Source: a virus
Lineage: Duplodnaviria; Heunggongvirae; Uroviricota; Caudoviricetes
Virus record (IMG/VR): IMGVR_UViG_3300037418_001222
DNA length: 64,000 nucleotides
Reading direction: 5' to 3' (one strand)
Position numbers and translations under genes: made by a program. The stretch's first letter is position 1, and the number at the start of each line of letters is the position of its first letter. The notes under the pieces are model-generated. The model saw only the letters and a program-made list of their open reading frames with translations, made no database searches and was not told the DNA's origin. This document shows positions 10,042 through 62,462 of this stretch, piece by piece.

Positions 10042-10051
10042 AATACCCAAC

Positions 10052-10086
10052 GAGGGGAGATCGATAAGGTCTCCCCTCTCTTTTTG
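10052..10086 (+). terminator. rho-independent terminator
   Basis: GAGGGGAGA-tcgataagg-TCTCCCCTC followed by tcTTTTT. Confidence 0.7.
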
Positions 10087-10182
10087 TGTGTGTTCTACGG
10101 ACATACGACCGACACTATCACGTATCTGATCAGTAGGGTCGCGACGGATACGAGCAACGCGAAGGCGACCATGAACCACATC

Positions 10183-10731: not shown

Positions 10732-10757
10732 CTAAAACCTCCTCATCTGATACGCCT

Positions 10758-10785
10758 ATTCTAATGGGTATGGAGGAAATGTCAA
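10758..10785 (-). promoter_or_regulatory. sigma70-type early promoter, conserved cassette (minus: TTGACA-N16-TAGAAT)
   Basis: Minus strand reads TTGACAtttcctccatacccatTAGAATagg; drives the protease gene. Confidence 0.6.
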
Positions 10786-10885
10786 CAACTTTATTTTCGC
10801 CGACGAACGGACACCTGCATGGCGAGGCACAGCCCGGAGATGATCAGTAGCTCGACGACAGTGACTATTCCCATCACGGTGCTCG

Positions 10886-11086
10886 TCATAGTTCGACTCC
10901 TCTCTCCACGATTCCGAACCCGACCGAGTCGTCACCCCAGTCGATGAGAACGACTTCTAAGCCGAGGTTTTTCAGGATACGATCGACTTCCTCCAGCGTT
11001 CCACGAGGATCAGTCTTCCAATCGACCGCGCTCTGGAACTTTGGAGTCCTATCGAGTCCGACTTCTTGGACATTGACCTCTCTCAT
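10886..11086 (-). CDS. hypothetical protein (66 aa)
   Basis: ORF with RBS AGGAGG directly after the cassette promoter. Confidence 0.4.
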   Translation of the reverse strand: MREVNVQEVGLDRTPKFQSAVDWKTDPRGTLEEVDRILKNLGLEVVLIDWGDDSVGFGIVERGVEL

Positions 11087-11106
11087 CGGCCACCTCCTAT
11101 TATCAG

Positions 11107-11136
11107 AATACTAATCTGACGGTGGAGAAATGTCAA
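11107..11136 (-). promoter_or_regulatory. sigma70-type early promoter cassette (TTGACA-N17-TAGTAT)
   Basis: Minus: TTGACAtttctccaccgtcagatTAGTATtctgataataGGAGG. Confidence 0.6.
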
Positions 11137-11151
11137 CGGCTTTATTTTTGT

Positions 11152-11466
11152 TTATGCCGGAGTGAACTCGTCCTCTTCGTCGTTCAGGAAGAACTTCACG
11201 ATCGAGTAGTCATACTCGGAATCGCTCCTCTTATCCTCGGATCGAGTGTCAAAGATGCGACATCCCGAGTCGTATCCTCGTCCTCCAATCTCGACGAGAC
11301 GAATCTCCCAGAGCGCTCGAACCCAACCCTGTCGACCCCATGAGTCGAGGTAGTCGTACACCTCCTCCTTCGCCTCGCTCAGCGTCTCTCGCTGAAAGTC
11401 GTGAGATCGGTGACCACGATAGTTGTCCGGATCGTACACACAATACAGCAGTAGAAATCGTCTCAT
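11152..11466 (-). CDS. hypothetical protein (104 aa)
   Basis: ORF, GC-rich. Confidence 0.45.
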   Translation of the reverse strand: MRRFLLLYCVYDPDNYRGHRSHDFQRETLSEAKEEVYDYLDSWGRQGWVRALWEIRLVEIGGRGYDSGCRIFDTRSEDKRSDSEYDYSIVKFFLNDEEDEFTPA

Positions 11467-11870
11467 GATACCTCTCCTGGTAGCCTACGACCAATCGTTC
11501 CATCGATGAGCTCGACGGACTGGACGTAGGTGTGCTGAAACAACCAACGAAAGAAGTCCTCGGGGTCGTGCCACGCTCCAGGAACCGGATCGAGCATCAC
11601 GACTACTTCGAGCTTCATCGTCGACGCGATCGGTGACACCGGGTAAGCGTTCGGGTTCTTCCTAGCCATAGCAATCGAACCTCCTCTCAGCATCGCCATC
11701 TCGTAGCACCGAAATATGGCGGTAGCCTCTCCATCAATCCCAGCCTCATCGAACTGTCGGAGCGCGTCCGGAACATTCTTCGCGGTGCACATCCACAGAT
11801 CCGAATCGGCTCCATAGACGATTAGATACGTGCTCTCTTCTTCCATGTCTACCTCTCCTATCCAATACAC
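11463..11870 (-). CDS. hypothetical protein (135 aa)
   Basis: ORF; 4-nt ATGA overlap with the downstream gene. Confidence 0.5.
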   Translation of the reverse strand: MYWIGEVDMEEESTYLIVYGADSDLWMCTAKNVPDALRQFDEAGIDGEATAIFRCYEMAMLRGGSIAMARKNPNAYPVSPIASTMKLEVVVMLDPVPGAWHDPEDFFRWLFQHTYVQSVELIDGTIGRRLPGEVS

Positions 11871-11872
11871 CC

Positions 11873-11901
11873 ACTCTAATAGGCGCTGGATGAAATGTCA
11901 A
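11873..11901 (-). promoter_or_regulatory. sigma70-type early promoter cassette (TTGACA-N17-TAGAGT)
   Basis: Minus: cgccTATTGACAtttcatccagcgcctatTAGAGTgggtgtattggataGGAGAGG. Confidence 0.55.
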
Positions 11902-11910
11902 TAGGCGATG

Positions 11911-12258
11911 TTATAACCAAGTAGCGCAACAGCGAGGATCCTCGCTGTACTTGATCCATCGCTTCACGAAACCGTTGCCGAACGTCATCGCTCCTTCCTC
12001 TCCATCGAGGCTCGGGCTCGTCCACCAGAATGCTCCTCGAGGCTCGCAGCGCAGCACATTGATGGCGATGATTTCCGCGGTCTTACCACCGCTGTGCGGA
12101 TTAAAACCAGGATCATAATGCAGTCGTAGCAGCGCCTCGCAGAACGTGTCGACCTCATCCTTGTGGATGATCTCCTTGTTGTAGGAGTTGCTGTTCTGAA
12201 AGAGATACTCGACGATGCAGAAGTCGCTGACAGGGAGCGAAGAATAATCTGGTCTCAT
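11911..12258 (-). CDS. hypothetical protein (115 aa)
   Basis: ORF. Confidence 0.5.
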   Translation of the reverse strand: MRPDYSSLPVSDFCIVEYLFQNSNSYNKEIIHKDEVDTFCEALLRLHYDPGFNPHSGGKTAEIIAINVLRCEPRGAFWWTSPSLDGEEGAMTFGNGFVKRWIKYSEDPRCCATWL

Positions 12259-12385
12259 GTCTACCTCTCCTTAGAAGAGTGGTGGCCGACGGGAACAGGG
12301 AAACGCCAACCACCACTCATCGAAAGAGAGTCGAAGCTCGAAGGAGGGTCGGGGTCGAGACTCCGTAGCCCCGACCCCTTCCCCA

Positions 12386-12691
12386 TTAGCGACCGAGCTC
12401 GAAGGGCTGGGTCAGTTCGATGAAGCCGTGAGCCGCATCGTGACGGACGTCGTCCATCCGATAGCCGGCGGCGAACAGCGCGGCGACGGTGACGGGCTTT
12501 CCCTTCGCGGCCTTGCAGGCCTTGATGAGAGCATCGTACCGCACCGCCGAAGCCGAACCGGGCTTCTTGGGGTTGGTGGAACCCTTTTCCGTCAGGGTGA
12601 CCGTCGACCCTTCGCGCCACTGGGTGCGCTTCGACTTGGTCTCGGCCTCGGCATTCTCGATCACTTCCGCTTCGTTGGTCTTCGGCATTTC
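12386..12691 (-). CDS. hypothetical protein (101 aa), second member of the NPKKPGS paralog family; start trimmed from the ORF-track 13063 because that ORF reads through the promoter
   Basis: RBS aaaAGGAGGtaagtgaaATG (MPKTNEAEV...); ...NPKKPGSASAVRYDAL...GYRMDDVRHDAAHGFIEL. Confidence 0.5.
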   Translation of the reverse strand, partial: EMPKTNEAEVIENAEAETKSKRTQWREGSTVTLTEKGSTNPKKPGSASAVRYDALIKACKAAKGKPVTVAALFAAGYRMDDVRHDAAHGFIELTQPFELGR

Positions 12692-12737
12692 ACTTACCTC
12701 CTTTTCCGCATCGGGGTAATTCCCAATCGGTATGATC

Positions 12738-12765
12738 AGTCTATACAAACCGGAAGAAATGTCAA
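12738..12765 (-). promoter_or_regulatory. sigma70-type early promoter cassette (TTGACA-N16-TAGACT)
   Basis: Minus: gttaTTGACAtttcttccggtttgtaTAGACTgatc. Confidence 0.5.
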
Positions 12766-12865
12766 TAACTTTTTTTTCGATATTGAAGATACTGCTACCG
12801 TCGAAGATTCCCCTTATACACGCGCGGACGTAATTCCTTTTATCTACACGCGAAGGCCTACTAGT

Positions 12866-12988
12866 GTCGTCGTCTCGGCTATCATTTCTATATACGCGAG
12901 ACGACGACAGTACACGCCGAGCGAGCGAGCGAGCGAGCGTACAGCCGTCTCGCGACGAGCGTACTGATGATGGGTCTCGCGACGAGCG
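12866..12988. repeat. non-coding repeat block: 13-bp perfect inverted repeat, (GAGC)5 microsatellite, 15-bp direct repeat x2
   Basis: TGTCGTCGTCTCG (12866-12878) / CGAGACGACGACA (12897-12909); gagcgagcgagcgagcgagcg at 12919-12939; GTCTCGCGACGAGCG at 12947-12961 and 12974-12988. Confidence 0.6.
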
Positions 12989-13122
12989 AGCTGAAAGATT
13001 TTGTTCGATGATGTGTGAGTGAGCGAACAGCGCCGCGAGCGTCTCATTGAGTTGGATGGCCACGTCGAGCGATCATACGTGGGAGCGAGCGAGATGACGG
13101 TTGTTTTCATAACAGGGATTCT

Positions 13123-13282
13123 TAACCATGTGGTTTAATTACAACCTGAAGTTCTTTCTTCAGCTCATCGATTTCTTGTCTCTGTCGTATTATAGTACGA
13201 GCCATCGATACGATATGTCCTGGATGCACGCTCGTTAGTCCGTCTAGAGACTTCGCTATCGTCGCTACAGCATTATCGGTCA
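13123..13282 (-). CDS. hypothetical small protein (52 aa; not in ORF track)
   Basis: Hand-translated MTDNAVATIAKSLDGLTSVHPGHIVSMARTIIRQRQEIDELKKELQVVIKPHG; start overlaps the upstream stop. Confidence 0.25.
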
Positions 13283-13570
13283 TCGATTCTTCTTCCATAC
13301 CGTCTTATCGAACCACGAGCGCATCTGTTTCAACTTACGGAGAGATGGCATTCGATAGAATCTGACAGGATTTCCATATTCGTTATATGGTTCGTGACGG
13401 AAGCCGTATGTTCCTTTGTAGTCGATTTCTTTGATCTCGGAGACGTGATAAGTTCGTTCGTGTTTCCAGACGTCGATTACGACTACGTGAGACTCGTCTA
13501 CACAGCGAACTACGCGTCCCGGTATGAATAGGTCTTCTCCACCGACGTCGACTATCGTGTTTCGCCTCAT
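13280..13570 (-). CDS. hypothetical protein (96 aa)
   Basis: ORF. Confidence 0.45.
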   Translation of the reverse strand: MRRNTIVDVGGEDLFIPGRVVRCVDESHVVVIDVWKHERTYHVSEIKEIDYKGTYGFRHEPYNEYGNPVRFYRMPSLRKLKQMRSWFDKTVWKKNR

Positions 13571-13848
13571 GAGTTACTCGATAGCTTGTTCTCAACGGCA
13601 TCCGCGAGCTCGCCGAACGTGCTCTTGTTGAGTATGTATCTTGGCGGATCGGGGATCATTCGATAGCATCCGTCGAAGCCTCTCCAATCATCCGGACCGA
13701 CGTTTGGATCGTCACTTCGCCCTGTCTCTTTCAGGAACTGAGCCATGGCACATCTCTCGGGAGAGAGGTAGTTGTACTTCTCGTCTCTGGGCTTCGTCTT
13801 CACCCAGTCCAAGAACTCTCGCGCCGTAAAGTCGAGGTTGGCCATCGT
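13567..13848 (-). CDS. hypothetical protein (93 aa; start trimmed to the RBS-preceded ATG)
   Basis: aaAGGAGAaagaacgATG (MANLDFTAREF...). Confidence 0.45.
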   Translation of the reverse strand, partial: TMANLDFTAREFLDWVKTKPRDEKYNYLSPERCAMAQFLKETGRSDDPNVGPDDWRGFDGCYRMIPDPPRYILNKSTFGELADAVENKLSSNS

Positions 13849-13927
13849 TCTTTCTCCTTTTCCTACTCTCCGAACTTCTCTTGGATCGTTAGAGTTCTCG
13901 AGGATTTGATAAGTCTTGCTCGGCATA

Positions 13928-14395
13928 TTAAACCTCATGGTTAAGTGTTCTCGAGTTCCGGTTGTTCGTTTGATTCCTCCGAATCCACTGGTTCGCTTCA
14001 TCTTCGCTGATGAAGCCACGCCAAGTGATTTCGTCGACCCTCACTCGACTCATGAGACCAGAGCGACGACCGCACGCTGGACATGAAGCTGACATCTCGT
14101 AGATGTACCAGCGTTCATCTGTCCCATGAAATACCGTCTGATATTGAACGGCAGGAGCACCAGGTCGGTTAATGACTCTAGGTAGCTCTCGAGCGTTTGA
14201 TTGAAGGATAAATCCAGAAGCCGCCATGATCATACACGACGTCTCTCGATATTTCTTTACGTACTCGATTGGAGCTCGAACCTCGAGACCCCCGTCAAAA
14301 GACGGACCGTCGATAACGACTACCTCTTCTCCTGTCGACCAAACAACCGGTTTATCCCAGTCTACTGGTTCGACGGGATTCTTGAAGTCGATCAT
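13928..14395 (-). CDS. hypothetical protein (155 aa)
   Basis: ORF. Confidence 0.5.
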   Translation of the reverse strand: MIDFKNPVEPVDWDKPVVWSTGEEVVVIDGPSFDGGLEVRAPIEYVKKYRETSCMIMAASGFILQSNARELPRVINRPGAPAVQYQTVFHGTDERWYIYEMSASCPACGRRSGLMSRVRVDEITWRGFISEDEANQWIRRNQTNNRNSRTLNHEV

Positions 14396-27012: not shown

Positions 27013-27183
27013 TTAATCCATATGAAGAGAGTGGCCGTCATCATTCATCGACCTGATGTGTCGATGATTGTTCCTCTCGAGTGATCCTCTCACTCTCATC
27101 ATTCCGATTGGGGAGATCTGGCGAGGAAGCCGAATTCGAAAGATATGTCCGTACTGGTTTACGGATTCAACGATAATGTCCAT
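27013..27183 (-). CDS. hypothetical small protein (56 aa; not in ORF track)
   Basis: ccatGGAGGTGGattgATG after promoter 27211-27239; hand-translated MDIIVESVNQYGHIFRIRLPRQISPIGMMRVRGSLERNNHRHIRSMNDDGHSLHMD. Confidence 0.3.
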   Translation of the reverse strand: MDIIVESVNQYGHIFRIRLPRQISPIGMMRVRGSLERNNHRHIRSMNDDGHSLHMD

Positions 27184-29870: not shown

Positions 29871-30047
29871 AGCAAATTTATCGATATCTAGATTCCCATT
29901 ATAAAGGGAAAATTCAATACCAAACGCAATCCAGATTGCCCTTCTGAATGGCCTTCTGGAATATTTTCGATTAAAAGGGTATATCCTATTGCTAATTGAT
30001 AACCTTGATTCTCTGATCATCTGAGTCAATGTTGCCTTACATTCCTA

Positions 30048-30076
30048 TTGACAATTTCTAGAACTCCATGTATAAT
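30048..30076 (+). promoter_or_regulatory. consensus sigma70 promoter (TTGACA-N17-TATAAT) for the DUF72 gene
   Basis: ctaTTGACAatttctagaactccatgTATAATgaagatgg. Confidence 0.7.
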
Positions 30077-30102
30077 GAAGATGGGCCAGAAGAGGTGTAT
30101 AG

Positions 30103-30879
30103 ATGTATTTAATTGGCACGTCAGGATTTCAATACGGCCACTGGAAGGGAACATTCTACCCAGAGGGTACGAAGGAATTGTTCTCGTTCTATCAAACGTG
30201 GTTCAATACGGTAGAGATAAATTCGTCATTCTATCATATGCCAAAGAGAACGACGTGTGAGTCATGGAACAATAAGACTCCGGATGACTTTAAGTTTGTG
30301 CTAAAGGCGCCAAGAGGAATCACTCACTATTGTAAGCTATCCAATAATTGCTACTCGATAGTATGTGACTTCATTAGAGCCACCGAACCATTGATAGATA
30401 AGATCGCTTGTATTCTCTGGCAGTTCCCTCCGTCATTCAGGATGAACTCTCAAACAGTAGATCGTCTTGGATATTTCTGTGAGCAGATACAACCATGGTT
30501 TCCGTATTCGGCATTCGAATTTAGGCATGACTCATGGTTAGACGAAAGGATAGTAAATGCTCTAATAGACTACGACTTCGAATACGTGAGGTCGGATCAT
30601 CGAAATATGAACTCCCTCTTCTTTCCAAGACCAAAGTCGAAGTTCTCTTACTTTCGAATGCACGGTCCGAAGGGAAATTACAGAGGATCCTATTCGGATG
30701 TTACACTAGATAGGATTGCGGCCGAAATGAGAGAGACTGAGTTCTCGTTAGCGTATTTCGATAATGACTTCGATGTGGGAGCACCGTACGATGCTCAGAA
30801 ACTAATTGGCAGATTAAGTAGTGAAGTACGCCCAACGAGCCTTATGTCTGCGAGTAACGACTATTGGGGTGGTCCATGA
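30103..30879 (+). CDS. DUF72 (YecE-like TIM-barrel) family protein
   Basis: LIGTSGFQYGHWKGTFYPEGTKELFSFYQTWFNTVEINSSFYHMP...WNNKTPDDFKFVLKAP matches the DUF72 signature G.sGW.y..W.g.FYP......L..Y...F..VEiN.tFY. Confidence 0.65.
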   Translation: MYLIGTSGFQYGHWKGTFYPEGTKELFSFYQTWFNTVEINSSFYHMPKRTTCESWNNKTPDDFKFVLKAPRGITHYCKLSNNCYSIVCDFIRATEPLIDKIACILWQFPPSFRMNSQTVDRLGYFCEQIQPWFPYSAFEFRHDSWLDERIVNALIDYDFEYVRSDHRNMNSLFFPRPKSKFSYFRMHGPKGNYRGSYSDVTLDRIAAEMRETEFSLAYFDNDFDVGAPYDAQKLIGRLSSEVRPTSLMSASNDYWGGP

Positions 30880-32133
30880 TACTTTAATCTGACCATTAGC
30901 GCCTGCACCACCAGGAGATGAGGACGATCCTCCACCTCCACCACCACCAGGAACCGAGCCGCCTAAACCCGTGCCTCCAGCAGAGCCTGTGCCAGCCGTT
31001 GAAACCTTTGCACCGCCTTGGCCACCAGCGCCGCCATCGGGCGAGCCTGCCGTGCCCGCCGCGGGGCGTGTAGTGGATGTCGCCGTTGAGCCTGCCGCGC
31101 CCGCACCGCCGGCGCCTGCGGAGCCTGCACCGCCCCCGCCTGAACCACCGCCTTGGGTGCCGCCACCGCCGCCTGCACCACCGTTACCACCAGCATAGCT
31201 GATTTGCCCTGTAGTAGCAGTAGCACCGTTGACTGTAGAACCGCTTGCAGTAACGCCGTTCGCGCCACCATTGGCCACGGCATAGTCAACAGAACTTTTT
31301 GTCGCCTTCGATGTGCCACCAGAAGTGCCGTTGCCGCTGGCCGATCCGGCAGTGCCCCCCGTTCCAACAGTGAGCGTGATGACATCGCCGTTGGTGACGG
31401 AGAAAGTTTGCAGACAGTATGCGCCGCCCGCACCACCAGAACCTTTACCGCCGCCTCCGCCGCCGCCCGCGCCCCAACTTTCAATCTGTATAGCGGTCGT
31501 GCCGGAGGGAGGATCATTCGCGCCGCCGCCGCCGACCGTGATGGTGGTCGTTCCGGTCGCAGTGATTGTCTCGGTGGTGATACTACCCGATGTTTCCACG
31601 ACGAGATACGGATTTTTACCCGCACCGACTACGGCATCGGCGGCATATAACTGGATAGAAGCTGTGGCTGTTGGCGCGGATGTGCTCTCCACAACGTCTT
31701 CGGTTAAGAGCAGACCATAAGTAGACGAGACGGAATAACTGCCAAGGACTATGGCCGATGTTCCGTTAGAGAGAACGGCAGCACTTCCTATAGACGTGCC
31801 CGCCAGTGTCGCACCGGCGACAAAGTTACTTGTTCCGGAACCGGACCACGTATCAGTGTAAGCATTGATATTACGGCCAGTGACGGTGCCGTTTTGGGTT
31901 ACGTATAGGGTAGCCGTCCCTCCTGACGGCATCGCGCTGGTATCGAAATGAAGGAAGCTCTCGTTTACAGTGTAAGTACTCGCATTCAGCCAGCCGGAGG
32001 CGTTATCTAATGTTGTTCCAGTAGCGCCGGCGGCTAGCGTCGATGAGCCTGCTCGAGCATTCAACCACGCAGCATCTGTCGAGGTTACGGTGTAGTCATC
32101 TGTGTTCGCGTAGGCGACATACTTTAGACCCAT
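30814..32133 (-). CDS. glycine-rich tail-fibre-like protein (439 aa)
   Basis: Long poly-Gly/Ala/Ser/Thr tracts (GGGGGGGKGSGGAGG...); the GC-rich Gly codons generate the spurious overlapping ORFs in the track. Confidence 0.55.
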   Translation of the reverse strand: MGLKYVAYANTDDYTVTSTDAAWLNARAGSSTLAAGATGTTLDNASGWLNASTYTVNESFLHFDTSAMPSGGTATLYVTQNGTVTGRNINAYTDTWSGSGTSNFVAGATLAGTSIGSAAVLSNGTSAIVLGSYSVSSTYGLLLTEDVVESTSAPTATASIQLYAADAVVGAGKNPYLVVETSGSITTETITATGTTTITVGGGGANDPPSGTTAIQIESWGAGGGGGGGKGSGGAGGAYCLQTFSVTNGDVITLTVGTGGTAGSASGNGTSGGTSKATKSSVDYAVANGGANGVTASGSTVNGATATTGQISYAGGNGGAGGGGGTQGGGSGGGGAGSAGAGGAGAAGSTATSTTRPAAGTAGSPDGGAGGQGGAKVSTAGTGSAGGTGLGGSVPGGGGGGGSSSSPGGAGANGQIKVSWTTPIVVTRRHKARWAYFTT

Positions 32134-32483: not shown

Positions 32484-35400
32484 TTACTCCGTTAATTTGA
32501 TCATGATATCCGATGGAGCATTAGTTGTATCTGCTGGAGCTTGAATATAAACGTTATTTCCAGATGATACTGCCGTTGTACTTAATGAAATAGTACCACT
32601 ATTTGAAGTTGAAAACACTATGTTTCCAATATTAGTACCATCTTTAAATATTGTAAATGATACTGATGCCGCCGAAGCAGTGAGTGATTTTGCCGAACTA
32701 CTTGTAGCATTTAATGTCATAGCATAAGGAGCTAGACCACCACCAATATATTCACTGTTAGCTGGCTTTCCAGAACAAAATACCATTAAAGCCTTCGCAT
32801 TTGTTGGTCCAGTAGGACCTGTTGATCCTTGAGAGCCAGTGAATCCAGTAGGACCGGTCGAACCCTGGCTTCCTGTAAATCCAGTCGGTCCTGTCGAGCC
32901 CTGTGATCCTGTAAATCCAGTTGGTCCCGTCGATCCCTGGGATCCAGTGAATCCTGTAGGACCGGTAGAGCCTTGAGAGCCAGTGAATCCAGTAGTTCCA
33001 GTGGTGCCTTGGCTTCCTGTAAATCCGGTTGGCCCTGTCGAGCCCTGGGATCCAGTGAATCCGGTTGGTCCTGTCGTTCCTTGAGAACCAGTAAATCCAG
33101 TCGGTCCTGTCGAACCCTGAGATCCTGTAAATCCAACATCACCACTTCTGCTAAAATTTAATACGAGAGGAGCTGAGTTAGCCGGAAGAGCTCCAGAAAC
33201 GTACGTAACGGTTATTGTTCTATATCCAGTTGAGTCTACAACAGAACCCGTTACTTTGAATATAACTGGTGCATTCGCCGTATTGGCTGACTGGAAAATC
33301 ATGTATCCATGAACTCCAGTGGTTGAGTCATCAAAAGTATCTAGCCACGCAGTAACATCAGTAGACGATACGTCTACATTATCAATATAGATCGATGTAA
33401 CGGATGCTATTGTTGCTGAATTAAACCTAACATTTCCATTTCCTGGATCGGCATTGGTAATAGTCGTACTAAATGTGTATGGAATTCCTCCCATACTTCC
33501 AATAGATCCAGTGAATCCGGTTGGCCCAGTTAGACCAGTCGATCCCTGAGATCCTGTGAATCCTGTCGGTCCTGTTGGACCAGTTGAACCTTGTGAACCT
33601 GTGAACCCAGTTGGTCCTGTCGAACCCTGACTACCTGTAAATCCAACGTCACCAGTTCTACTAAAACTTAATACTAATGATGATGCATTTGTTGGTAGAG
33701 ATCCAGAAAGATACGTTACCGATATTGTTCTGTATCCGGTTGAGTCTACAACTGAGCCTGTTACTTTAAAAATAACTGGAGTTGACGATATAGATGCCGA
33801 CTCAAACACCATATACCCATGTGTTGAAGTTGTAGAGTCATCAAAAGTATCCAACCATGCAGTAACATCAGTTCCAGAAGAATCTAAATTATCGATATAA
33901 ATCGATGTTACAGATGCAATAGTCGCAGAGTTAAATCGTACTGTTCCATTTCCTGGATCAGAATTAGTAATAGTTGTACTAAATGTGTATGGAACTCCAG
34001 CTCTGGTTCCAACTGAACCAGTAAAACCCGTTGGTCCGGTTGGGCCAGTTGATCCAGCAGTTCCTTGTGATCCGGTGAATCCTGTTGGACCTGTCGGACC
34101 AGTAGATCCAGCAGTTCCCTGAGAACCAGTGAATCCTGTCGAGCCTTGTGATCCGGTAAAACCCGTAGGCCCCGTTGGGCCAGTCGAGCCCTGACTTCCA
34201 GTGAAGCCAGTTGCCCCTTGTGATCCTGTAAACCCAGTTGGTCCCGTTGGACCAGTAGATCCCTGTGATCCGGTGAAACCTATTGCGCCTTGGCTTCCAG
34301 TAAAGCCAGTTGGGCCTGTTGGACCCGTTGAACCTTGAGAACCGGTAAAGCCAGTTGGTCCTGTCGGCCCTGTCGCTCCCTGTGATCCAGTAAATCCTGT
34401 CGGTCCGGTCGTTCCTGTTGATCCATCAGCTCCAGCACTACCAGTATAACCAATCGGTCCCTGTGGCCCAGTAGGACCAGCTACTGTCGACGCTGATCCG
34501 GTGAATCCTGTTGGACCAGTTGAACCCTGTGATCCAGTGAAGCCAGTTGGTCCAATAGAACCAACATCGCCCTGTGATCCTGTATAACCTATATCGCCTT
34601 GTGATCCAGTAAATCCAATAACACCTTGTGATCCGGCATATCCTGTTGAACCTTGAGATCCTGTAAATCCAATTGATCCAGTAAATCCGGTAACGCCTTG
34701 TGATCCAGTATAGCCAATATCACCTTGTGATCCAGTAAATCCTACTTGGCCCTGAATCTTTCCTACATCTTGCCATGAGGATCCATTCCACACCCAGAGG
34801 TCGCCATTAATAAGATATGCATCTCCAGACGAACCAGATGCAGGAAGATCGGCGGAACTCGCTAGGGTTCCGATAATATTGATTCCTTGTCCAATCGATC
34901 CTGTGTATCCAATAGATCCCGTATAACCGGTGTCGCCCTGAGAGCCAGTGAATCCTACTTGTCCTTGAGGTCCCATTGAACCCACTGAACCAGTGAATCC
35001 TATAACTCCCTGCGAACCAGTATACCCGGTCGATCCTTGTGATCCAGTAAATCCAATATCACCCTGTGATCCAGCGTATCCGGTTACGCCTATTGGACCC
35101 TCAATACCTTGTGATCCAGTGAATCCAATGTTTCCTTGAGAGCCAGTATATCCAGTAGCTCCGTCAGCACCAGAACTTCCGGTGAATCCGATTGAACCAG
35201 TGTATCCAAGCTGTCCCGGTGCCGTTGATGCAGAACCAGTATAACCCGTTGTTCCTTGAGAACCAGTATATCCGATTGAACCCGTATATCCTACCGATCC
35301 AGTATATCCATCTCTACCAATAAATCCAGCAGATCCAGTGTATCCTCTAGCAACCTGCAATATCTCCATTTCCATAGAGGTATTCGCGATGGTGTATGTC

Positions 35401-35525
35401 ACGGCATCAGAATCAAAAGATTGTAATACGTCAATTTGAATCGAGTATGGATTACCAATATCGACTATGTTTGTTGGAACGGATCCAAGCTGTGTTATAT
35501 CTTCAATACGGAGACTATAAACCAT
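32484..35525 (-). CDS. collagen-like triple-helix repeat fibre protein (1013 aa)
   Basis: Hundreds of G-X-Y triplets ([13 protein letters not shown]...), interrupted by two ~110-aa near-identical globular repeats ([37 protein letters not shown]...) and one central domain. Confidence 0.75.
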
Positions 35526-51775: not shown

Positions 51776-52141
51776 TCATGTTCCAGTATAATTCTCCCAC
51801 CTATCCCTCATTCTTTGAATAACCTCTTCAGGAACATTATGAATATTTCCATGATTTCCCTCAATGGTAATCACAGTATGAGGATATGGAAGGTCTAGAT
51901 ATCTTTGAAATTCCCAGAGACGAGTAAAAGTATTACTTACAACAGTATCAAAACCATCTTTCAAGGATCTAACAACTTCATGAAAACACTTATCATGACA
52001 GGAATGGTCTGTTGGATCGAATACATATTCTCCATCCTTAAACCTGAACTGATCGGATTCATAGTGGGGAATCCCCATGTTCTTAGCAAAAGTAGACTTT
52101 CCTGATCCCGGAAGACCTCTTACAATATACAAGTGTGCCAT
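51776..52141 (-). CDS. P-loop kinase-like NTPase (121 aa; Walker A GLPGSGKST)
   Basis: MAHLYIVRGLPGSGKSTFAK... resembles small nucleotide/nucleoside kinase (AAA_33-like) folds; start trimmed to the ATG overlapping the upstream stop. Confidence 0.5.
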   Translation of the reverse strand: MAHLYIVRGLPGSGKSTFAKNMGIPHYESDQFRFKDGEYVFDPTDHSCHDKCFHEVVRSLKDGFDTVVSNTFTRLWEFQRYLDLPYPHTVITIEGNHGNIHNVPEEVIQRMRDRWENYTGT

Positions 52142-52614
52142 TACGATTCTAGCTTCTCTACTTTCCATTTAGGCTTCATATCTGTGGAGCATCCACACTC
52201 ACAGATAAGATTCGCCGAGTCAATCACCATATCATCAGAAATCTCTGTGAAGAACTTCTTCTCTATGTCATCAAATGTATTACCGTTTTGTGGATCTAGA
52301 ATTTTGAATCCATCCCAGAATATGGAATGAGTTCCTCCTTCGTTATTCACTGACTTGACCGATAGAATAGCTCTACGCCCAAATAACATCTCTCTCCAAA
52401 AAGAGTTACTGATTCGGTGATTATGGTCATAAACGTTTTTATAACATACATCAAGATGATTTAGAATAGAGCTTGCATGAGTCCCACTTGAAGAAGTGTA
52501 TGCTCCGCTTATACTTGCAACATTCAAGACATAGTCATAATCGAGACCAGTGGCCATAGCTACAGAAGCTATGACACACTGATCATTAGTCTTTTGGTTA
52601 ATTAAATCAGGCAT
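52141..52614 (-). CDS. putative papain-like (C39-like) cysteine peptidase
   Basis: QKTNDQCVIASVAMATG (Gln ... Cys nucleophile spacing as in C39), later GGTHSIFWDG (His) and D/N. Confidence 0.4.
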   Translation of the reverse strand: MPDLINQKTNDQCVIASVAMATGLDYDYVLNVASISGAYTSSSGTHASSILNHLDVCYKNVYDHNHRISNSFWREMLFGRRAILSVKSVNNEGGTHSIFWDGFKILDPQNGNTFDDIEKKFFTEISDDMVIDSANLICECGCSTDMKPKWKVEKLES

Positions 52615-54028
52615 GCTCTTCTCTAAGAATTTGTTGAACCTTTGATGGATTTAATTGAAGCTTGGCGCGTTCTCTGATCTCGTCGAAGGTCGTTTTATTG
52701 AAGAGTTTGCCATTAACAAATCTTTCAACCAAGAGATTCTCCTCGCTTCCAAGATCCTTTGAGTTAATAGTCTTGTACTTCCCATTGTCTCTAATGAGCG
52801 CCAACATTCCCTTCTTAGATCTCTTTCCCGAGTCGGTAATCGGATCCTTGAAAACATCTACCCATGTACCATTAATCTTAGCGGCCGAACATTTCATGGC
52901 GAATTTGAGCGTATCTCGATTCACTTGCTGAAGTAGAGCTCCACCCTGGCCAAATGCAACATTGTCTGCGCTATATCCGGAGAGAGTTAGTGAGAAGAGA
53001 ATAGACCTGATACTCTTATGATCAATTCCATCTCCTTGGATTATCCTTACATTATTAAGAACCTTGAATCCCTTTGAGTTAATCGTATGTCCAAAGTATT
53101 GATCAAGGATCTTAGCGCACTGAGTCACCACCACAGAAGGATCACCAGAGTCCGGTCGAATAACTACAGTCGCTCCAGAATGAAGAACGTCTGCCTTTAG
53201 CATTGTTCCCCATTTTCGGCAGGCTCTATAGATGTCGTAAGAGTCTGAAACGCATGCGACAAGACCACCTGGTTTAGCGTGTTGTTTGAGCATGTTTCTG
53301 AACGATGCTTCTTCACCGTCACGACCCCATGAGGTGACCGTTGAGTGTTCCATAGCAGGAATACTGAATCCCACTGGACCTGATGCTCCATAATGTCGCA
53401 TGATATGGCTGAGCGCTTCGACGGTGTCCGTGCCCATAAAATTGATAAGGTGTGCTGTTCCGCCAATTGCCGCAGACTCTTTAGAACTGACGCCTCTCGC
53501 TCCGAAATCGTGGAGCTTGAAACCAATTCCAGCAGGGTCTCCAGTTCGCTCCAGCGATTCAAGAATGATCTCCTTTGAGTGATACGAATTAGATGCGACA
53601 GTGGTTGGATACCAAATTGCCCGAAGCAAAGCCGTCTCAAGAAACGAAGTCAGCCACCAACACTTTGGATCGGTGTTCACAATAGTAACGAGTACATTCG
53701 ATGGTGGAAGAACGGTTCCCTCGTCAATTCCCATGATACTAACCGGAAGACGACCATTGTGGACCAAACGAATGTATTCCCATCCCTCTCGATAGAAAGG
53801 TAGTCCGTGCGCCGTTACGATTGCTTCAGCTTCATCGATCATCTCTAACGTAATTGGATTATCTCGAAGATAATGAAGAAACGGTTGAAGACCATTGTAT
53901 ACGATCTTGTCGTATTGGCCACCACGAGACTCGATGTATGAATACACATACTCAGTTCCCTCTGGATATTGGTTCCACTGAGAGTATTTGTACGAGTCGG
54001 TGTCTAGAATAATGTTATTTTGTAGCAT
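52607..54028 (-). CDS. nadV: nicotinamide phosphoribosyltransferase (NAMPT/NadV)
   Basis: N-terminal ILDTDSYKYSQWNQYP signature and 473-aa length typical of NAMPT. Confidence 0.85.
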   Translation of the reverse strand: MLQNNIILDTDSYKYSQWNQYPEGTEYVYSYIESRGGQYDKIVYNGLQPFLHYLRDNPITLEMIDEAEAIVTAHGLPFYREGWEYIRLVHNGRLPVSIMGIDEGTVLPPSNVLVTIVNTDPKCWWLTSFLETALLRAIWYPTTVASNSYHSKEIILESLERTGDPAGIGFKLHDFGARGVSSKESAAIGGTAHLINFMGTDTVEALSHIMRHYGASGPVGFSIPAMEHSTVTSWGRDGEEASFRNMLKQHAKPGGLVACVSDSYDIYRACRKWGTMLKADVLHSGATVVIRPDSGDPSVVVTQCAKILDQYFGHTINSKGFKVLNNVRIIQGDGIDHKSIRSILFSLTLSGYSADNVAFGQGGALLQQVNRDTLKFAMKCSAAKINGTWVDVFKDPITDSGKRSKKGMLALIRDNGKYKTINSKDLGSEENLLVERFVNGKLFNKTTFDEIRERAKLQLNPSKVQQILREEHA

Positions 54029-54069: not shown

Positions 54070-54255
54070 TTACTTTACGTAAACTTTTTTGTCACTTTGT
54101 GGGCATTTAATAAAACGGCAAAGATCAGATCCTCCGGCGTAATCATAATGTATGAATTCATTAACTTCAGATAAGAGGTACTCAAGAATTGATGAACAAT
54201 TCTTACAAGTGACTCTATGAACATATTGGGGATCAGATCCAATAACCTTAACCAT
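54070..54255 (-). CDS. zinc-ribbon small protein (61 aa; CKNC...CRFIKC)
   Basis: Two Cys pairs. Confidence 0.4.
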   Translation of the reverse strand: MVKVIGSDPQYVHRVTCKNCSSILEYLLSEVNEFIHYDYAGGSDLCRFIKCPQSDKKVYVK

Positions 54256-55210
54256 TCACTTTCTCCTGTGGAACGTGAACCTGCTTCTTACCAAAACCGG
54301 CTGATGGTTTTGCCTTATCTGGATTTTGCTTCATCCAATCCTGGACAAACCAAAGCTGACCACATCCACCACCAATTGTATCCTGTCCAGCAGGATCAAA
54401 TACACGAGTGTCATATCCACGAGATACAAGCTTTTCTGCAAAGTCCACTGCCAACTTTCGCTGAAAGTCATTAGTCGCTGGCATACCATCATTACGCTCA
54501 CAAATGACTGAAACCGTAGCACTAAATGCGTGTGGGGCAAATAGTTTAACTAGACGATCAACGTCTTCATCGGAAGTATTATCTTCGTGCGCACAATAGT
54601 TAAAGAACGGCTTTCTCTCATTAGAGACAGCAGTCATCCAAATCATTCCCTGAATAGCCATATCTTGTAGGTCCCACTTATTTTTAAATGGAACGAGTTT
54701 ATTTCGAGCTTCATCAGTAGATTCGTGTACAGAAAATTGCAAACCAACTGTTGGAATTTCTGCAGATGCTTTTAGGAATTCGTGCCAACTCTCTGTTCCA
54801 GATACGTTAGGTCCAGAAGTAGATACGAGCAGTCGGGCATGGGGATACTTCTCATAGAGCGTATACATCGCTGGAATGAGAGCCTTCAAGTTAAGAAGAG
54901 GTTCGCCCATTGACATGAACATCACCTGGAGCTTCTTCATATCTGAAGCACTCACTCCGGTCTGCTCGATGGAATAATCAACTTGATTGACAATTTCCTC
55001 AGAGGTAAGGTTCCGAACGAAATAGTCACCAGCTCCACAGAAACGGCAGCCAACCGGACAACCCGACTGAGTAGAACAGCAGATAACAGTCCTCTCTTCG
55101 TAAGTTGGATATCGATAGAGCACGCTCTCCGCTACGGCGTTATCTTTCGAATAGACGAATTTTGCTACGTTCTCTGCCTCGTCATCAATTCGCTTAATGT
55201 TATTCCACAT
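54248..55210 (-). CDS. radical SAM methyltransferase of the RlmN/Cfr family (N-terminally truncated relative to RlmN)
   Basis: CPVGCRFC (CxxxCxxC), MSMGEPLLN, LVSTSG, SVHE and C-terminal GGGCGQL correspond to RlmN blocks CALGCKFC, MGMGEPLLN, LSTSG, SLHA and AACGQL (recalled from memory). Confidence 0.65.
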   Translation of the reverse strand: MWNNIKRIDDEAENVAKFVYSKDNAVAESVLYRYPTYEERTVICCSTQSGCPVGCRFCGAGDYFVRNLTSEEIVNQVDYSIEQTGVSASDMKKLQVMFMSMGEPLLNLKALIPAMYTLYEKYPHARLLVSTSGPNVSGTESWHEFLKASAEIPTVGLQFSVHESTDEARNKLVPFKNKWDLQDMAIQGMIWMTAVSNERKPFFNYCAHEDNTSDEDVDRLVKLFAPHAFSATVSVICERNDGMPATNDFQRKLAVDFAEKLVSRGYDTRVFDPAGQDTIGGGCGQLWFVQDWMKQNPDKAKPSAGFGKKQVHVPQEKVNG

Positions 55211-55221
55211 ATCAAAGATCC

Positions 55222-56271
55222 TTATTTCGCTAGAGGAATAAAGTGAGTGATAATATCATAATGGTCGTCAAAGAGAAGTTCTCTCTTAATATCTACGAAT
55301 GGGACCCATCGAGCCTTCTCAGCGTCATCCGATCCCTTGATCTTAGGAAGTTTCCACTCTCCACCTTGTAGACCAATATGAGCTGCAAAAGTGATAGACC
55401 TACCCAGCTGAGATCGTCCTTTAGCAGAGAAGTTCTCAACCTTCTTGATACATCCTCTTAAGACTTTTTCTGGAACATCGATGCACGTCTCTTCCTTAAG
55501 TTCTCGGATGATTCCATCAATTGGAGTATTATCTTTGATAGCATCAAAGTATCCACCGGGAAGCGCCCAGAGACCGCGACCGGGATGAGCTCTCCTCTTG
55601 ATAAGGAGAATGTGTCCAGATTGGACCACAACTGCGTCGCATGTAACGGCGACAACTGGATATGGAAGAAGTCCTCTATATCGTTCCTTGCAGGCATCGA
55701 TTATCTTCTTTTCATCCATAATATTCTGGTAATGTTCAGTCTCTCGAAATAAACGAAGAAACTGTAGAACTGAAGTAGGAACAACCCCAACCAACCAACT
55801 CTCGTTATAACATGGAGAAAAGTATAGGTTTCGAATGTCTGTAGCGTTCAGAATCTCAACGGGCTCGATGTCGATATATTCCCATTGAGGGAACATCTCA
55901 AGATACTCCTTGGTCTCATTGTCCTTCTTGTGACCAATGAGACCAACGACTCCATTCTCATGTTTACTAACGATATTTTGAATTCTGGCAACCCATCCAT
56001 CATCATCATAGAGAGTATCTACGTTATATTCGATAACAAATGACGCTAGAGTAGAATCAGATATTCTACGTAATTCTGGGATCATCATCTTATGACGCTC
56101 CTCAACCGTCCACGGATTCTTCGGTGAACGGGGTGCGTATGCAGATCCAATGATGATGATTACTTGCTTAGCGAGCTTTCCAGCTCTTTCGAGTAGCTCT
56201 ATATGAGCTTTATGGAGACCTTGAAATCTCCCGAGTACGACTAGTGTATCATATTTCTTATTCATTCGCAA
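55222..56271 (-). CDS. natV: bifunctional NMN adenylyltransferase / Nudix ADP-ribose pyrophosphatase (NadM-Nudix, NatV-like)
   Basis: N-terminal nucleotidyltransferase GRFQGLHKAH (HxGH); C-terminal Nudix box GGYFDAIKDNTPIDGIIRELKEETCI. Confidence 0.8.
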   Translation of the reverse strand: MRMNKKYDTLVVLGRFQGLHKAHIELLERAGKLAKQVIIIIGSAYAPRSPKNPWTVEERHKMMIPELRRISDSTLASFVIEYNVDTLYDDDGWVARIQNIVSKHENGVVGLIGHKKDNETKEYLEMFPQWEYIDIEPVEILNATDIRNLYFSPCYNESWLVGVVPTSVLQFLRLFRETEHYQNIMDEKKIIDACKERYRGLLPYPVVAVTCDAVVVQSGHILLIKRRAHPGRGLWALPGGYFDAIKDNTPIDGIIRELKEETCIDVPEKVLRGCIKKVENFSAKGRSQLGRSITFAAHIGLQGGEWKLPKIKGSDDAEKARWVPFVDIKRELLFDDHYDIITHFIPLAK

Positions 56272-57149: not shown

Positions 57150-57980
57150 TTACTTGTCGATTGAAATCATGGGAGTGCCATTACCCATGACCTGGGGAAG
57201 GTGCCCGTCCCACTTCTCGAGTTTGGTCTGCTCAAGGATCTCAGGATTAGAGCGAATGGCATCACCCTTGATCTGCATGGCCTTAGCATCACCCTCGGCT
57301 TCAGCAATCTTGGCATTAGCATTTGCCTGAACAGTAGCCACGTTAGCCTGAGCCGCGAGCGCCTGCTGTTCATTAGCGATCTTAGCATTGATCTGCTGCA
57401 TCACCTGATCCGGAACTCGAATATTCGAAGCCCAGTAGAGCTGATCGACGACGAGTCCATAAGGAGCGAAGTACCTCTGAACATCAGCAAGAGCCTTATT
57501 AGCGAGCTCTGCCTTACGAGGTCCATAGATATCCTCAACTCCCATCTGAGAGGCTTCCTCGACGATAGCATTTCGAACAGAGTTCCTCAATGGACCAGCT
57601 ACGATTCCATCCATATCGGTACGATACTTCTGGAATAGAATCGGCGCCTTGGCCGCGTCGACATGATAAGCAACAGCGACGTCGGCAGTCAGACCAAGAC
57701 CATTCTTATCCTGGAAGGTGATCTCCTCGTTATTAGCCTTGCCCTCGTCTGAGGAGCGAGTCCAAGTATATGTAGAGGTGAACACCGGATATTCGTAGAT
57801 GCTGGTTCCAGGAAGAGTGACATACTTTCCGACAGGAAGAGCAACGTTAGATACGCCAGCCGAACTACCGAAGTTCGAAACCTTAATACCAACATGCCCG
57901 GGATGAACACTGGAGCAACTGGTTAGTCCTCCGATGATGAGGAACAAGACAAATGCTACCGCACCAATTAATTTACCCAT
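57150..57980 (-). CDS. SPFH/band-7 (prohibitin-like) lipoprotein
   Basis: Signal peptide plus lipobox GGLTSC; SPFH core followed by a coiled-coil Ala/Gln-rich tail (QQALAAQANVATVQANANAKIAEAEG). Confidence 0.65.
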   Translation of the reverse strand: MGKLIGAVAFVLFLIIGGLTSCSSVHPGHVGIKVSNFGSSAGVSNVALPVGKYVTLPGTSIYEYPVFTSTYTWTRSSDEGKANNEEITFQDKNGLGLTADVAVAYHVDAAKAPILFQKYRTDMDGIVAGPLRNSVRNAIVEEASQMGVEDIYGPRKAELANKALADVQRYFAPYGLVVDQLYWASNIRVPDQVMQQINAKIANEQQALAAQANVATVQANANAKIAEAEGDAKAMQIKGDAIRSNPEILEQTKLEKWDGHLPQVMGNGTPMISIDK

Positions 57981-59592: not shown

Positions 59593-59808
59593 TTATTTCT
59601 CTGAATCGTTAACATAATTATGTCCAACGTATCCAGCACATGATAAGAATCGATTAAATATCTCTGCTAACCTATCATGAGTGATTGCCTCTCCTGATAT
59701 AGAGATATCTAATGTTTCTGGTGAGTCATTATCACAAGTTCTAACCATAGAGAACTTGAACGTCTCACAAAGATCTTTAACAATATCTTGTTGCATGATT
59801 ACAGGCAT
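59593..59808 (-). CDS. hypothetical protein (71 aa)
   Basis: ORF. Confidence 0.4.
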   Translation of the reverse strand: MPVIMQQDIVKDLCETFKFSMVRTCDNDSPETLDISISGEAITHDRLAEIFNRFLSCAGYVGHNYVNDSEK

Positions 59809-60299
59809 TATCGTCTCTTCCAGAAATTAAGGTGTTCAAGTAGTGGATTCAACCAATTTGTCATAACACAGAAGTTAGTATCAAATGGTGGCTTATGATG
59901 CTTGGCGTGTTGTTTGGGTGACTGAAGTATTCCAGTTTCTTGAAGTAGTTTAATAGCCTTTGGAGCCTTAGACGGTCTATGAGAGAAGTAGTGTATTTCA
60001 TTTGCTATAGCAGAACCAATCAAGAAAGTTATAGAGAAGACAGAAAGACCGAATAGAAGAAACCACATAGATCCAACTATGAGTGCAGTAACTATTGCGG
60101 CGAGATTGCGACCAATAAACCCATTCTTCTCAAATGCTAGAGGTTCTTTATGGTGAAGAGCATTAGGAACTATTATCCACTTACCAATTATCGGCCAGCT
60201 CTCATTTCCAAACGTATCTTCCCACCAGTGGAATACACCAGTGGCTAGGTCAGCTAATAACCATCCAAGAACTATCTGGCCTACGATTGAAAAGATCAT
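59808..60299 (-). CDS. His-box integral membrane protein of the fatty-acid desaturase/hydroxylase superfamily (TMEM189/CarF-like)
   Basis: Four His clusters (HWWED, HHKEP, HYFSH, HAKHH) separated by TM segments; 163 aa. Confidence 0.45.
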   Translation of the reverse strand: MIFSIVGQIVLGWLLADLATGVFHWWEDTFGNESWPIIGKWIIVPNALHHKEPLAFEKNGFIGRNLAAIVTALIVGSMWFLLFGLSVFSITFLIGSAIANEIHYFSHRPSKAPKAIKLLQETGILQSPKQHAKHHKPPFDTNFCVMTNWLNPLLEHLNFWKRR

Positions 60300-61137: not shown

Positions 61138-61213
61138 TGGAGCCCCCGCGGGGAGTCGAACCCCGTGCTGCTGGTTTAGAAGACCTGCGCCCGAAATCCG
61201 TCGGCGAGGGCTC
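61138..61213 (-). tRNA. tRNA-Arg (anticodon UCU), 76 nt with encoded CCA
   Basis: Minus strand GAGCCCTCGCCGACGGATTTCGGGCGCAGGTCTTCTAAACCAGCAGCACGGGGTTCGACTCCCCGCGGGGGCTCCA. T-arm CGGGG-TTCGACT-CCCCG; anticodon arm CAGGT-CTTCTAA-ACCAG places UCU at 34-36. Acceptor and D-arm need wobble or shifted pairs. Confidence 0.65.
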
Positions 61214-62109: not shown

Positions 62110-62433
62110 GGAGAAGCTTTCGTTTGAATGAAGTGGGAGCTTCTGTTGCTAGGTGCTCCCGAACCCCGGAGACCTGATTAGGCAGCTAGTGCCATGTCTC
62201 CAGCGAACGAGTTATCGTTTGCGTTTACTTTTTTGATCTGTCTAGGTAGATCAAACCTGAACGAAGAATTCTACTAATCATCTTACGTCGAAACCATTCG
62301 CCCCCATATCTATTTTGTTGGTGGAGGCGGAGGGTAATGAGCCCTCGTCCGTACAAACTTTTGTAGTTTCTATTTACGTCCATTATTCACCATCAGCATT
62401 TCTGCATCAGGTAGAATTTCTAATCTATTTATT

Positions 62434-62462
62434 CTTATACTACACTATTCTTAAAATGTCAA
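62434..62462 (-). promoter_or_regulatory. sigma70-type early promoter (TTGACA-N17-TATAAG) with ~330-nt leader
   Basis: Minus: cttgTTGACAttttaagaatagtgtagTATAAGaata. Confidence 0.5.

Follow-up and report, generated by a model that had tools for sequence, protein, structure and literature searches.

To our knowledge, among class A radical S-adenosylmethionine (SAM) methylases only RlmN and Cfr have been characterised, and both act on RNA. RlmN (TIGR00048; PDB 3RF9, 5HR7) methylates C2 of A2503 in 23S rRNA and of A37 in tRNA, and Cfr (NF000424, TIGR04432; PDB 9P0P) methylates C8 of A2503. An NAD+ reconstitution pathway, NARP2, has been described in phages; it consists of two genes, encoding nicotinamide phosphoribosyltransferase (NAMPT) and nicotinamide mononucleotide adenylyltransferase (NMNAT), and has been shown, for Vibrio phage KVP40, to restore NAD+ and overcome Thoeris and DSR2. 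The word ‘radical’ occurs in neither of the two NARP papers searched. Bacterial NAD salvage operons (pncA-pncB-nadD-nadE) are regulated by NrtR, and the reconstruction of the NrtR regulon (PMC2330246) lists no radical SAM gene, though it mentions nrtX and nrtY of unknown function. The subject of the present analysis is a gene in which these systems meet, a 320 amino acid (aa) open reading frame (ORF) at 54248..55210 on the minus strand of a 64,000 nucleotide stretch (hereafter the window) of IMG/VR virus record IMGVR_UViG_3300037418_001222 (Caudoviricetes). It encodes an RlmN/Cfr-like radical SAM (rSAM) protein and is located between the genes of the two NARP2 enzymes. The link between this branch of RlmN/Cfr-like proteins and NAD salvage genes is the main new result, and no publication on the family or on its NAD salvage link was found in the literature.

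The ORF starts with ATG, is preceded by an AAGGA-like ribosome-binding site and carries all the features on which a first-pass annotation had based its assignment to the RlmN/Cfr family: the CxxxCxxC cluster, a second cysteine pair and the MGEPLLN, STSG and GGGCGQL blocks. The [4Fe-4S] cluster ligands C51-x3-C55-x2-C58 (55037..55060, minus strand, as are the other motifs of the ORF) are invariant in all relatives. A HMMER alignment with E. coli RlmN (3RF9) pairs C44 with C118, C51/55/58 with C125/129/132 and C283 with C355, and a MAFFT alignment with Klebsiella RlmN and S. aureus Cfr (C105 and C338) gives the same pairing. C44 (55079..55081) is hence aligned with the cysteine which resolves the enzyme-substrate crosslink, and C283 in GGGCGQL (54362..54364) with the methyl-carrying cysteine; neither varies among 33 close relatives, and most distant ones also have them. 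Positions invariant across the query, RlmN and Cfr are E28, C44, C51/55/58, G102, E103 and N107 (within MGEPLLN, residues 101-107, 54890..54910), S130 and T131 (within STSG, residues 130-133), S160, R169 and C283-G-Q-L. With RlmN, the query has the MGEP, ST, SxH and CGQL blocks in common.

Profile, structure and fold matches agree with this assignment. The only Pfam match is the generic Radical_SAM family (PF04055, 33.6 bits against a cut-off of 29.5), while the eight best NCBIfam models are all RlmN or Cfr (E 2.5e-27 for TIGR00048 to 1.5e-17) and a sequence search against solved structures retrieves RlmN and Cfr alone (E. coli RlmN 3rf9, E=6e-18). An AlphaFold2 model built from a 78-sequence alignment (mean pLDDT 95.2, pTM 0.93) retrieved RlmN or Cfr as all of the top 11 Foldseek matches (E 3e-18 to 6e-12, TM 0.59-0.73), and the next families, MqnE, TigE, NifB and viperin, followed after a gap at E ~1e-5, the first of them at 8e-6. 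Membership of another radical SAM subfamily such as QueE or the PflA type was rejected, as every NCBIfam match outside RlmN/Cfr had E > 0.004. In PHROGs, only a weak match to the unannotated family phrog_24834 was obtained. The similarity to RlmN and Cfr is far beyond chance; these are the nearest relatives by sequence and by fold, RlmN giving the best match in both. The protein retains the partial TIM-barrel core and the [4Fe-4S]/SAM site, as well as Cys283 as methyl carrier and Cys44 as resolving residue.

The ORF nevertheless belongs to neither the curated RlmN nor the curated Cfr subfamily. Against the RlmN models it scores 96 bits (95.8) where 290 is the cut-off (TIGR00048) and 85.6 where it is 633 (NF008396), and against the Cfr models 69-81 bits where the cut-offs are 468-550 (NF000424, 81.2 against 530; TIGR04432, 69.3 against 550; PRK14453, 70.8 against 468). 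Over trimmed alignment columns the query shares 23% identity with RlmN and 27% with Cfr, as against 36% between RlmN and Cfr themselves. In the protein database 5,896 relatives were found at E <= 1e-5, labelled ‘hypothetical’, ‘radical SAM’ or, by similarity, ‘RlmN’. The best 120 clusters (65-90% identity, 309-337 aa) are mostly metagenomic, many of them on contigs of 50-570 kb. A search of 50%-identity representatives gave a continuum of short forms (~270-340 aa) down to ~30% identity, the canonical-length forms (~350-370 aa, with the N-terminal domain) appearing only at E ~1e-21 to 1e-27. Cultured carriers at 47-60% identity comprise T5-like Stenotrophomonas and Xanthomonas phages, Salmonella phage Arash, a Vibrio phage group and Aeromonas phage Ahp1, besides a 462-kb uncultured phage. 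The short forms share a mean identity of 41% among themselves and of 26% with canonical forms, and a neighbour-joining tree places the query within a 66-member clade without canonical sequences, although support is weak: a group of all short forms was recovered in 0/100 bootstraps and a motif-defined core in 0/60. Because of the identity levels and signature residues, rather than tree support, the query appears to represent a distinct third, uncharacterised branch of class A radical SAM methylases, ~280-340 aa long and mostly found in phages. The N-terminal extensions of three relatives (P0122, P0123, P0126) have no Pfam match, and their starts may be miscalled.

The most evident difference from both RlmN and Cfr is at the N-terminus. 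The first ~65-75 residues of RlmN, comprising the HhH2 RNA-binding domain and a linker, have no counterpart in the query, whose residue 14 aligns to position 80 of TIGR00048 and residue 34 to RlmN residue 108. The absence of this domain had been recognised in the first-pass annotation, but the missing part had been taken to be ~100 residues long. The query begins at the beta-sheet extension which in RlmN and Cfr connects the core to the N-terminal domain; this extension is kept, consistent with the four N-terminal strands of the AlphaFold2 model. In the cryo-EM structure of Cfr with rRNA, the N-terminal domain anchors the H90/H91/H92 junction and supplies most of the H91/H92 contacts. It has a positively charged region, common to RlmN, that is described as crucial for rRNA binding, and the mutants R25A and Q28A lose activity. 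Within the Cfr core, the target nucleotide is bound at its ribose O4' and its phosphate by R327, S328 and N288.

When these contacts were mapped by sequence alignment onto the query and the 33 close relatives, the N-terminal Cfr residues Y24, R25, Q28 and K49 had no counterpart in the query, and several core contacts were replaced by residues invariant in all 33. A125 stands for Cfr R184/RlmN R206 (aligned to Ala or a gap), T232 for Cfr N288, and F271-D272-P273-A274 for Cfr R327-S328-x-F330 and RlmN R344-K345-T346-R347. The last of these forms part of a clade signature, F271-D272-P273-A274-G275-Q276-D277 (54380..54400), where RlmN has R344-K345-T346-R347-G-D-D. The catalytic and SAM-site residues, E28 (Cfr E91) and the five cysteines, are invariant in the same set. 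The 120 closest clusters are acidic throughout (median pI 5.3, net charge -9, range -18 to -3), and a C-terminal tail that distinguishes the query from RlmN is conserved (W-x-V-Q-x-W ... A-K/R-P-S-x-G ... H-x-P). As judged from these alignments, the branch has lost the RNA-binding domain, has had its RNA-backbone basic residues replaced and is acidic. The invariant Asp in place of a phosphate-binding Ser or Lys would be less suited to an internal phosphodiester than to a metal-pyrophosphate or the diol of a free ribose.

These changes bear on whether the protein is still an RNA methyltransferase, producing m2A or m8A on tRNA (at A37 or elsewhere), on rRNA or on other RNA, for instance the 5' adenosine of NAD-capped RNA, and recognising its target without the N-terminal domain. 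This is a possibility which we take seriously but consider rather unlikely. Every characterised relative is an RNA C-methylase, and such enzymes are the only significant sequence and fold matches. In addition, Y34 of the beta-extension is kept as the equivalent of Cfr Y97, which binds the target ribose and belongs to the residues stacking on the target adenosine, and R199/K200 are the counterparts of R249/K250, which in Cfr contact bases of the rRNA. On the other hand, the domain providing most contacts to RNA tertiary structure in Cfr, including the positive region, is absent, basic residues facing the RNA backbone have become Phe, Asp, Pro and Ala, and the clade is acidic. The earlier proposal that the phage copy retargets ribosome or tRNA methylation is weakened by the same observations.

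They also count against the view that the gene is a mobile resistance determinant of the Cfr type or replaces RlmN in methylating 23S rRNA A2503, either of which we regard as extremely unlikely. Only family-level homology speaks in favour, together with the name ‘23S rRNA (adenine2503-C2)-methyltransferase’ which JGI pipelines give to relatives by similarity. The scores fall far below the RlmN and Cfr cut-offs, and the N-terminal domain and the Cfr residues binding H90 and the A2503 phosphate are absent or changed. Among the 72,556 plasmids in PLSDB no relative exceeds ~34% identity, the matches being known cfr/rlmN genes at 26-34%. Hosts, moreover, already possess RlmN. The multi-antibiotic resistance raised in the first-pass annotation therefore finds no support, and the gene is probably not an antibiotic-resistance gene.

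The genomic setting, which is one of NAD salvage and not a housekeeping one as for RlmN, points in another direction. The rSAM start codon lies 11 nt past the stop codon of an upstream NMNAT-Nudix fusion gene (55222..56271, minus strand; PF01467 and PF00293). The rSAM stop overlaps by 8 nt with the ATG of a 61-aa Cys-rich ORF (54070..54255, minus strand), which resembles a zinc ribbon or rubredoxin knuckle (CxxCG ... CPxC; the double zinc ribbon match is weak) and could possibly act as a rubredoxin-like electron donor or as a partner protein. NAMPT follows downstream (52607..54028, minus strand; PF04095 and PF18127). These genes belong to a co-directional string which includes gp59, an SPFH protein gene, NMNAT-Nudix, rSAM, the zinc-ribbon ORF, NAMPT, a 157-aa ORF and, at its end, a 130-aa AAA_33 P-loop kinase-like protein with homologs in four rSAM loci (51776..52168, minus strand), gp32 lying further on. 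The window encodes both NARP2 enzymes with the rSAM gene between them, and the latter is an extra gene within the NAMPT/NMNAT pair rather than a defined NARP2 component. Most cultured NAMPT-bearing phages lack it: none of the 60 top NAMPT matches listed was among the 40 rSAM matches listed.

To place this arrangement in a wider context, neighbourhoods were compared in 81 loci from IMG/VR, GenBank phages and metagenomes carrying a homolog of 46-90% identity. The neighbours are highly diverse (2,794 ORFs in 2,122 clusters), and the three largest clusters are NMNAT-Nudix (22 loci), NAMPT (21) and a Macro-domain protein (15). Other recurrent, Pfam-confirmed neighbours are a nucleoside 2-deoxyribosyltransferase-like protein (NDT), NADAR, phosphoribosyl pyrophosphate (PRPP) synthetase, AAA_33, RNA ligase and metallophosphoesterase; a zinc-ribbon ORF of 61-65 aa is located beside the rSAM or NMNAT gene in seven loci (including L053, L055, L058, L061 and L082). 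A NARP2 gene is found within 10 kb in 24/81 loci, mostly within one to four genes, and both genes in 18. These loci span 9/19 rSAM groups (65% identity), and any NAD/ADP-ribose gene is nearby in 33/81. Gene orders vary (NMNAT-NAMPT-x-rSAM, NMNAT-rSAM-NAMPT, rSAM-NAMPT, NMNAT-Zn-rSAM-Macro-NDT-NAMPT). Against a background in which a NAMPT-family gene occurs anywhere in 3.7% of 50,697 phage records, the NARP2 linkage has binomial probabilities of 1.4e-12 (loci) and 8.6e-9 (groups). In one metagenomic relative at 42% identity, P0134, the rSAM and a Nudix domain are fused in a single protein, and genes for NAMPT and a separate NMNAT come next. Two records assigned to archaeal metagenome-assembled genomes (MAGs; L102, ‘archaeon’, and L114, ‘Methanobacterium sp.’), on contigs of 170-176 kb, carry a 61% identical rSAM, which in L114 is accompanied by PRPP synthetase, NAMPT, Macro and NDT in a phage-like string; these are probably phage contigs mis-binned as archaeal.

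An independent set, one genome for each of 185,579 species, extends the linkage to cellular genomes. About 70 short-type copies were found, spread over Alpha- and Betaproteobacteria, Actinobacteria, Saccharibacteria, Firmicutes, Bacteroidota and others, a scattered pattern typical of mobile or phage-borne genes. NAD genes occur within 10 kb in 19/62 short-type cellular loci and within three genes in 14/62. The partners represent the Preiss-Handler route, identified by Pfam as PncA (isochorismatase fold), PncB (NAPRTase N and C), NadD and NadE, together with the Nudix-type regulator NrtR; a further neighbour cluster, nadK, resembles NAD kinase by sequence motif only. The rSAM orthologs are internal members of such NrtR-regulated operons in Saccharibacteria, Actinobacteria and Firmicutes. 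A Firmicutes MAG (L143) has the order Nudix-x-pncA-pncB-rSAM-nadE-x-nadD-x-nadK-nrtR with stop/start overlaps on both sides of rSAM, an Ornithinimicrobium murale isolate (L123) has pncA-rSAM-nrtR with overlaps, and in five Saccharibacteria loci (L108, L112, L118, L120, L122) pncB-pncA is divergent from rSAM, which is followed by nrtR-nadE, the cluster being flanked in several of them by MetRS and TatD. The genes flanking the operons also include ATP synthase, FtsX/MacB, MFS, glycosyltransferase and UvrD. Because such genes as MetRS, ATP synthase, FtsX, MFS and glycosyltransferase flank the operons, the setting is chromosomal rather than phage in several loci, and the notion that all genome-contig matches are prophages was rejected for these. 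The operon copies are 45-58% identical to the window protein, of equal length, and carry the VICCS, FNYC, SVICE and FDPAGQDxIGGGCGQLWxVQxW signatures, and are clearly its orthologs. In one Bacilli MAG (L166, 10034-10851) the rSAM is split into fragments of 86 and 80 aa inside a pncA-pncB-Nudix-nadE-nadD operon, probably as a pseudogene or through an assembly error.

The linkage to genes which process NAD+ cleavage products is strong, replicated and found in multiple lineages. On the nicotinamide side these are NAMPT and PncA, and on the ADP-ribose side Nudix, NrtR, Macro, NADAR and PRPP synthetase. It could in principle arise artefactually, from common descent or from hot spots where accessory genes gather, with the role of the protein being unrelated or non-catalytic. 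Such an account, which we consider improbable, would draw on the fact that most loci have no NAD genes, that large phages pack accessory genes into the same regions, and that one operon copy (L166) is fragmented. It accommodates poorly a linkage which recurs across the nine rSAM groups in varied gene orders, in phage and chromosomal settings and in several phyla, and which involves two separate salvage routes (NAMPT/NMNAT and PncA/PncB/NadD/NadE). Nor would it explain the strong conservation of the catalytic residues over more than 120 clusters at >=65% identity.

Taken together, the evidence points to a C-methylase of the class A radical SAM type which is linked to NAD+/ADP-ribose recycling and acts on a target different from A2503, a reading to which we give about an even chance. 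Of the functions suggested in the first-pass annotation, a different adenosine substrate is the one that fits best, and the gene-neighbourhood link to NAD+ salvage sharpens it. Our leading guess is that the substrate is the adenine of a free adenine dinucleotide or of ADP-ribose, that is, NAD+, nicotinic acid adenine dinucleotide (NaAD) or ADP-ribose itself. That the protein is in fact the first class A methylase of a small molecule, C-methylating C2 or C8 of this adenine, is proposed only tentatively. By analogy with RlmN and Cfr, one SAM would methylate Cys283, and a second SAM would be reductively cleaved to a 5'-deoxyadenosyl radical which takes a hydrogen from the S-methyl group. The resulting methylene radical would add to an electron-poor sp2 carbon of the substrate (adenine C2 or C8 in the known enzymes), and Cys44 would resolve the covalent adduct, leaving a C-methyl group on the substrate. 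In the phage, the enzyme may act alongside the NAD+ reconstitution pathway in countering NAD+-depleting host immunity.

Several points weigh against this interpretation. All family members that, as far as we know, have been characterised act on RNA, and class A enzymes are slow, which disfavours bulk conversion of a metabolite pool in the millimolar range. The substrate is proposed from the parts which have been lost and from the neighbouring genes, and the residue mapping rests on sequence alignment rather than on a superposed complex. The boundary of the clade free of canonical forms was recovered in only 13/100 neighbour-joining bootstraps. The rSAM-Nudix fusion P0134 is a single cluster, a search with the fusion itself returning a singleton, and carries little weight; the neighbourhood genes were obtained with a crude greedy longest-ORF caller and clustered by BLAST. 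In the majority of loci no NAD gene could be recognised within 10 kb; examples are the T5-like Stenotrophomonas phages, Arash, the Vibrio phages, Bradyrhizobium-type prophages and an abundant mouse-gut prophage. Aeromonas phage Ahp1 has NAMPT 11 kb upstream of rSAM.

A last point against it is that tRNA genes occur within 10 kb in 21/81 loci, in some of which (phage ANB28, L048, L059) they directly flank the gene, and that the rSAM gene of T5-like phages is found among tRNA genes. For this reason an RNA target stays plausible, and the recurrence of RNA ligase and metallophosphoesterase genes nearby lends it some further support; in that case the NAD genes would lie nearby through co-regulation, or because they belong to one accessory or anti-defence island with the rSAM gene, and not because of a common substrate. 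The tRNA association is, however, weaker and looser than the linkage to NAD genes, which is much stronger and tighter and is also seen in cellular operons without tRNA genes. Moreover, the two tRNAs called by ARAGORN in the window are of types (Ile-GAU, Arg-UCU) which in E. coli carry t6A37 and not m2A37. The calls themselves, tRNA-Ile(GAU) at 27022-27105 (plus strand) and tRNA-Arg(UCU) at 61138-61211 (minus strand), may be divergent phage tRNAs or false calls, as no Rfam tRNA was found at gathering score.

The neighbourhood also bears on whether the adenine modified is that of phage DNA or of a deoxynucleotide precursor, as an anti-restriction measure, for which the action of TGT/DpdA tRNA-modification homologs on DNA offers a precedent. 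In the window the gene is located among early and replication genes (gp32, gp59, ligase), and in temperate relatives beside DnaB, SSB and YqaJ. A distant relative, P0227 (33% identity), has as its fusion partner an HD domain resembling dNTP triphosphohydrolases. Yet the protein is acidic and has no DNA-binding domain, dNTP-pool-editing genes are not consistently linked, and a slow class A chemistry consuming two SAM is ill-suited to the millions of bases in a burst. P0227 lies in a cellular context outside the orthologous clade, and the cellular orthologs are found in NAD operons, not in restriction-modification contexts. We consider modification of DNA very improbable. P0227 (L093, 724-3003) is a 759-aa protein combining a short RlmN-like domain, lacking the N-terminal domain, with an HD/HD_assoc dGTPase-like triphosphohydrolase, and its gene adjoins those for histidinol dehydrogenase and aconitase.

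From its gene content the window belongs to a T4-like phage, with genes for a gp6-type baseplate wedge, a gp5-type hub, a tail tube, baseplate proteins, a collagen-like tail fibre, an ATP-dependent DNA ligase, gp32 and gp59. As a megablast search with 8 kb around the gene against the 50,697 phage records gave no match, the phage is new at the DNA level. Promoter and terminator scans performed no better than chance. A permuted two-piece tmRNA gene of alphaproteobacterial type is present at 62132-62458 (minus strand; RF01849, 111.6 bits; RF04321, 115.5 bits), with the tag peptide ANDNSFAGDMALAA according to ARAGORN. A tmRNA is unusual in a phage and hints at an alphaproteobacterial host, in agreement with the origin of the nearest rSAM relatives in Bradyrhizobium, Phenylobacterium and Micropepsaceae records.

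Two further genes and two patches of raised GC content were also observed in the window. An SPFH/Band 7 protein, prohibitin-like and with a lipoprotein-like signal at its N-terminus, is encoded at 57150-57980 (minus strand), 2 kb upstream of rSAM, and in the records of phages BUCTxx99 and JGB6 the region of the rSAM homolog is labelled ‘prohibitin family protein’. A 163-aa protein (59808-60299, minus strand) between gp59 and the tRNA/tmRNA region has a strong match to Lipid_desat (PF10520, 144 bits) and a weaker one to FA_hydroxylase, an odd membrane-lipid enzyme for a phage. The GC content is 0.52-0.55 at 10000-14000 and 30000-32000, as compared to 0.37-0.45 elsewhere. The second patch holds a tail-fibre-assembly-like gene and adjoins the gene for the 1013-aa collagen-like tail fibre (32484-35525), which suggests that the high-GC patches are mosaic or recently exchanged host-range modules.

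The existence of a large conserved branch which lacks the N-terminal domain, has a remodelled substrate surface and is wired to NAD+ recycling in both phages and bacteria suggests either a new substrate class for class A chemistry or an undescribed link between RNA methylation and NAD+ turnover. The thousands of phage entries named ‘23S rRNA (adenine2503-C2)-methyltransferase’ are probably mislabelled, and should not be counted as Cfr-like resistance genes. For the phages, the protein is a candidate extra player in the conflict over NAD+ with host immunity (Thoeris, DSR, SIR2-type NADases). If a small molecule is indeed methylated, this would create a modified dinucleotide pool or disable ADP-ribose-derived signals, and the rSAM would constitute an unrecognised third component of bacterial NAD+ salvage and reconstitution modules and of phage anti-immunity modules.

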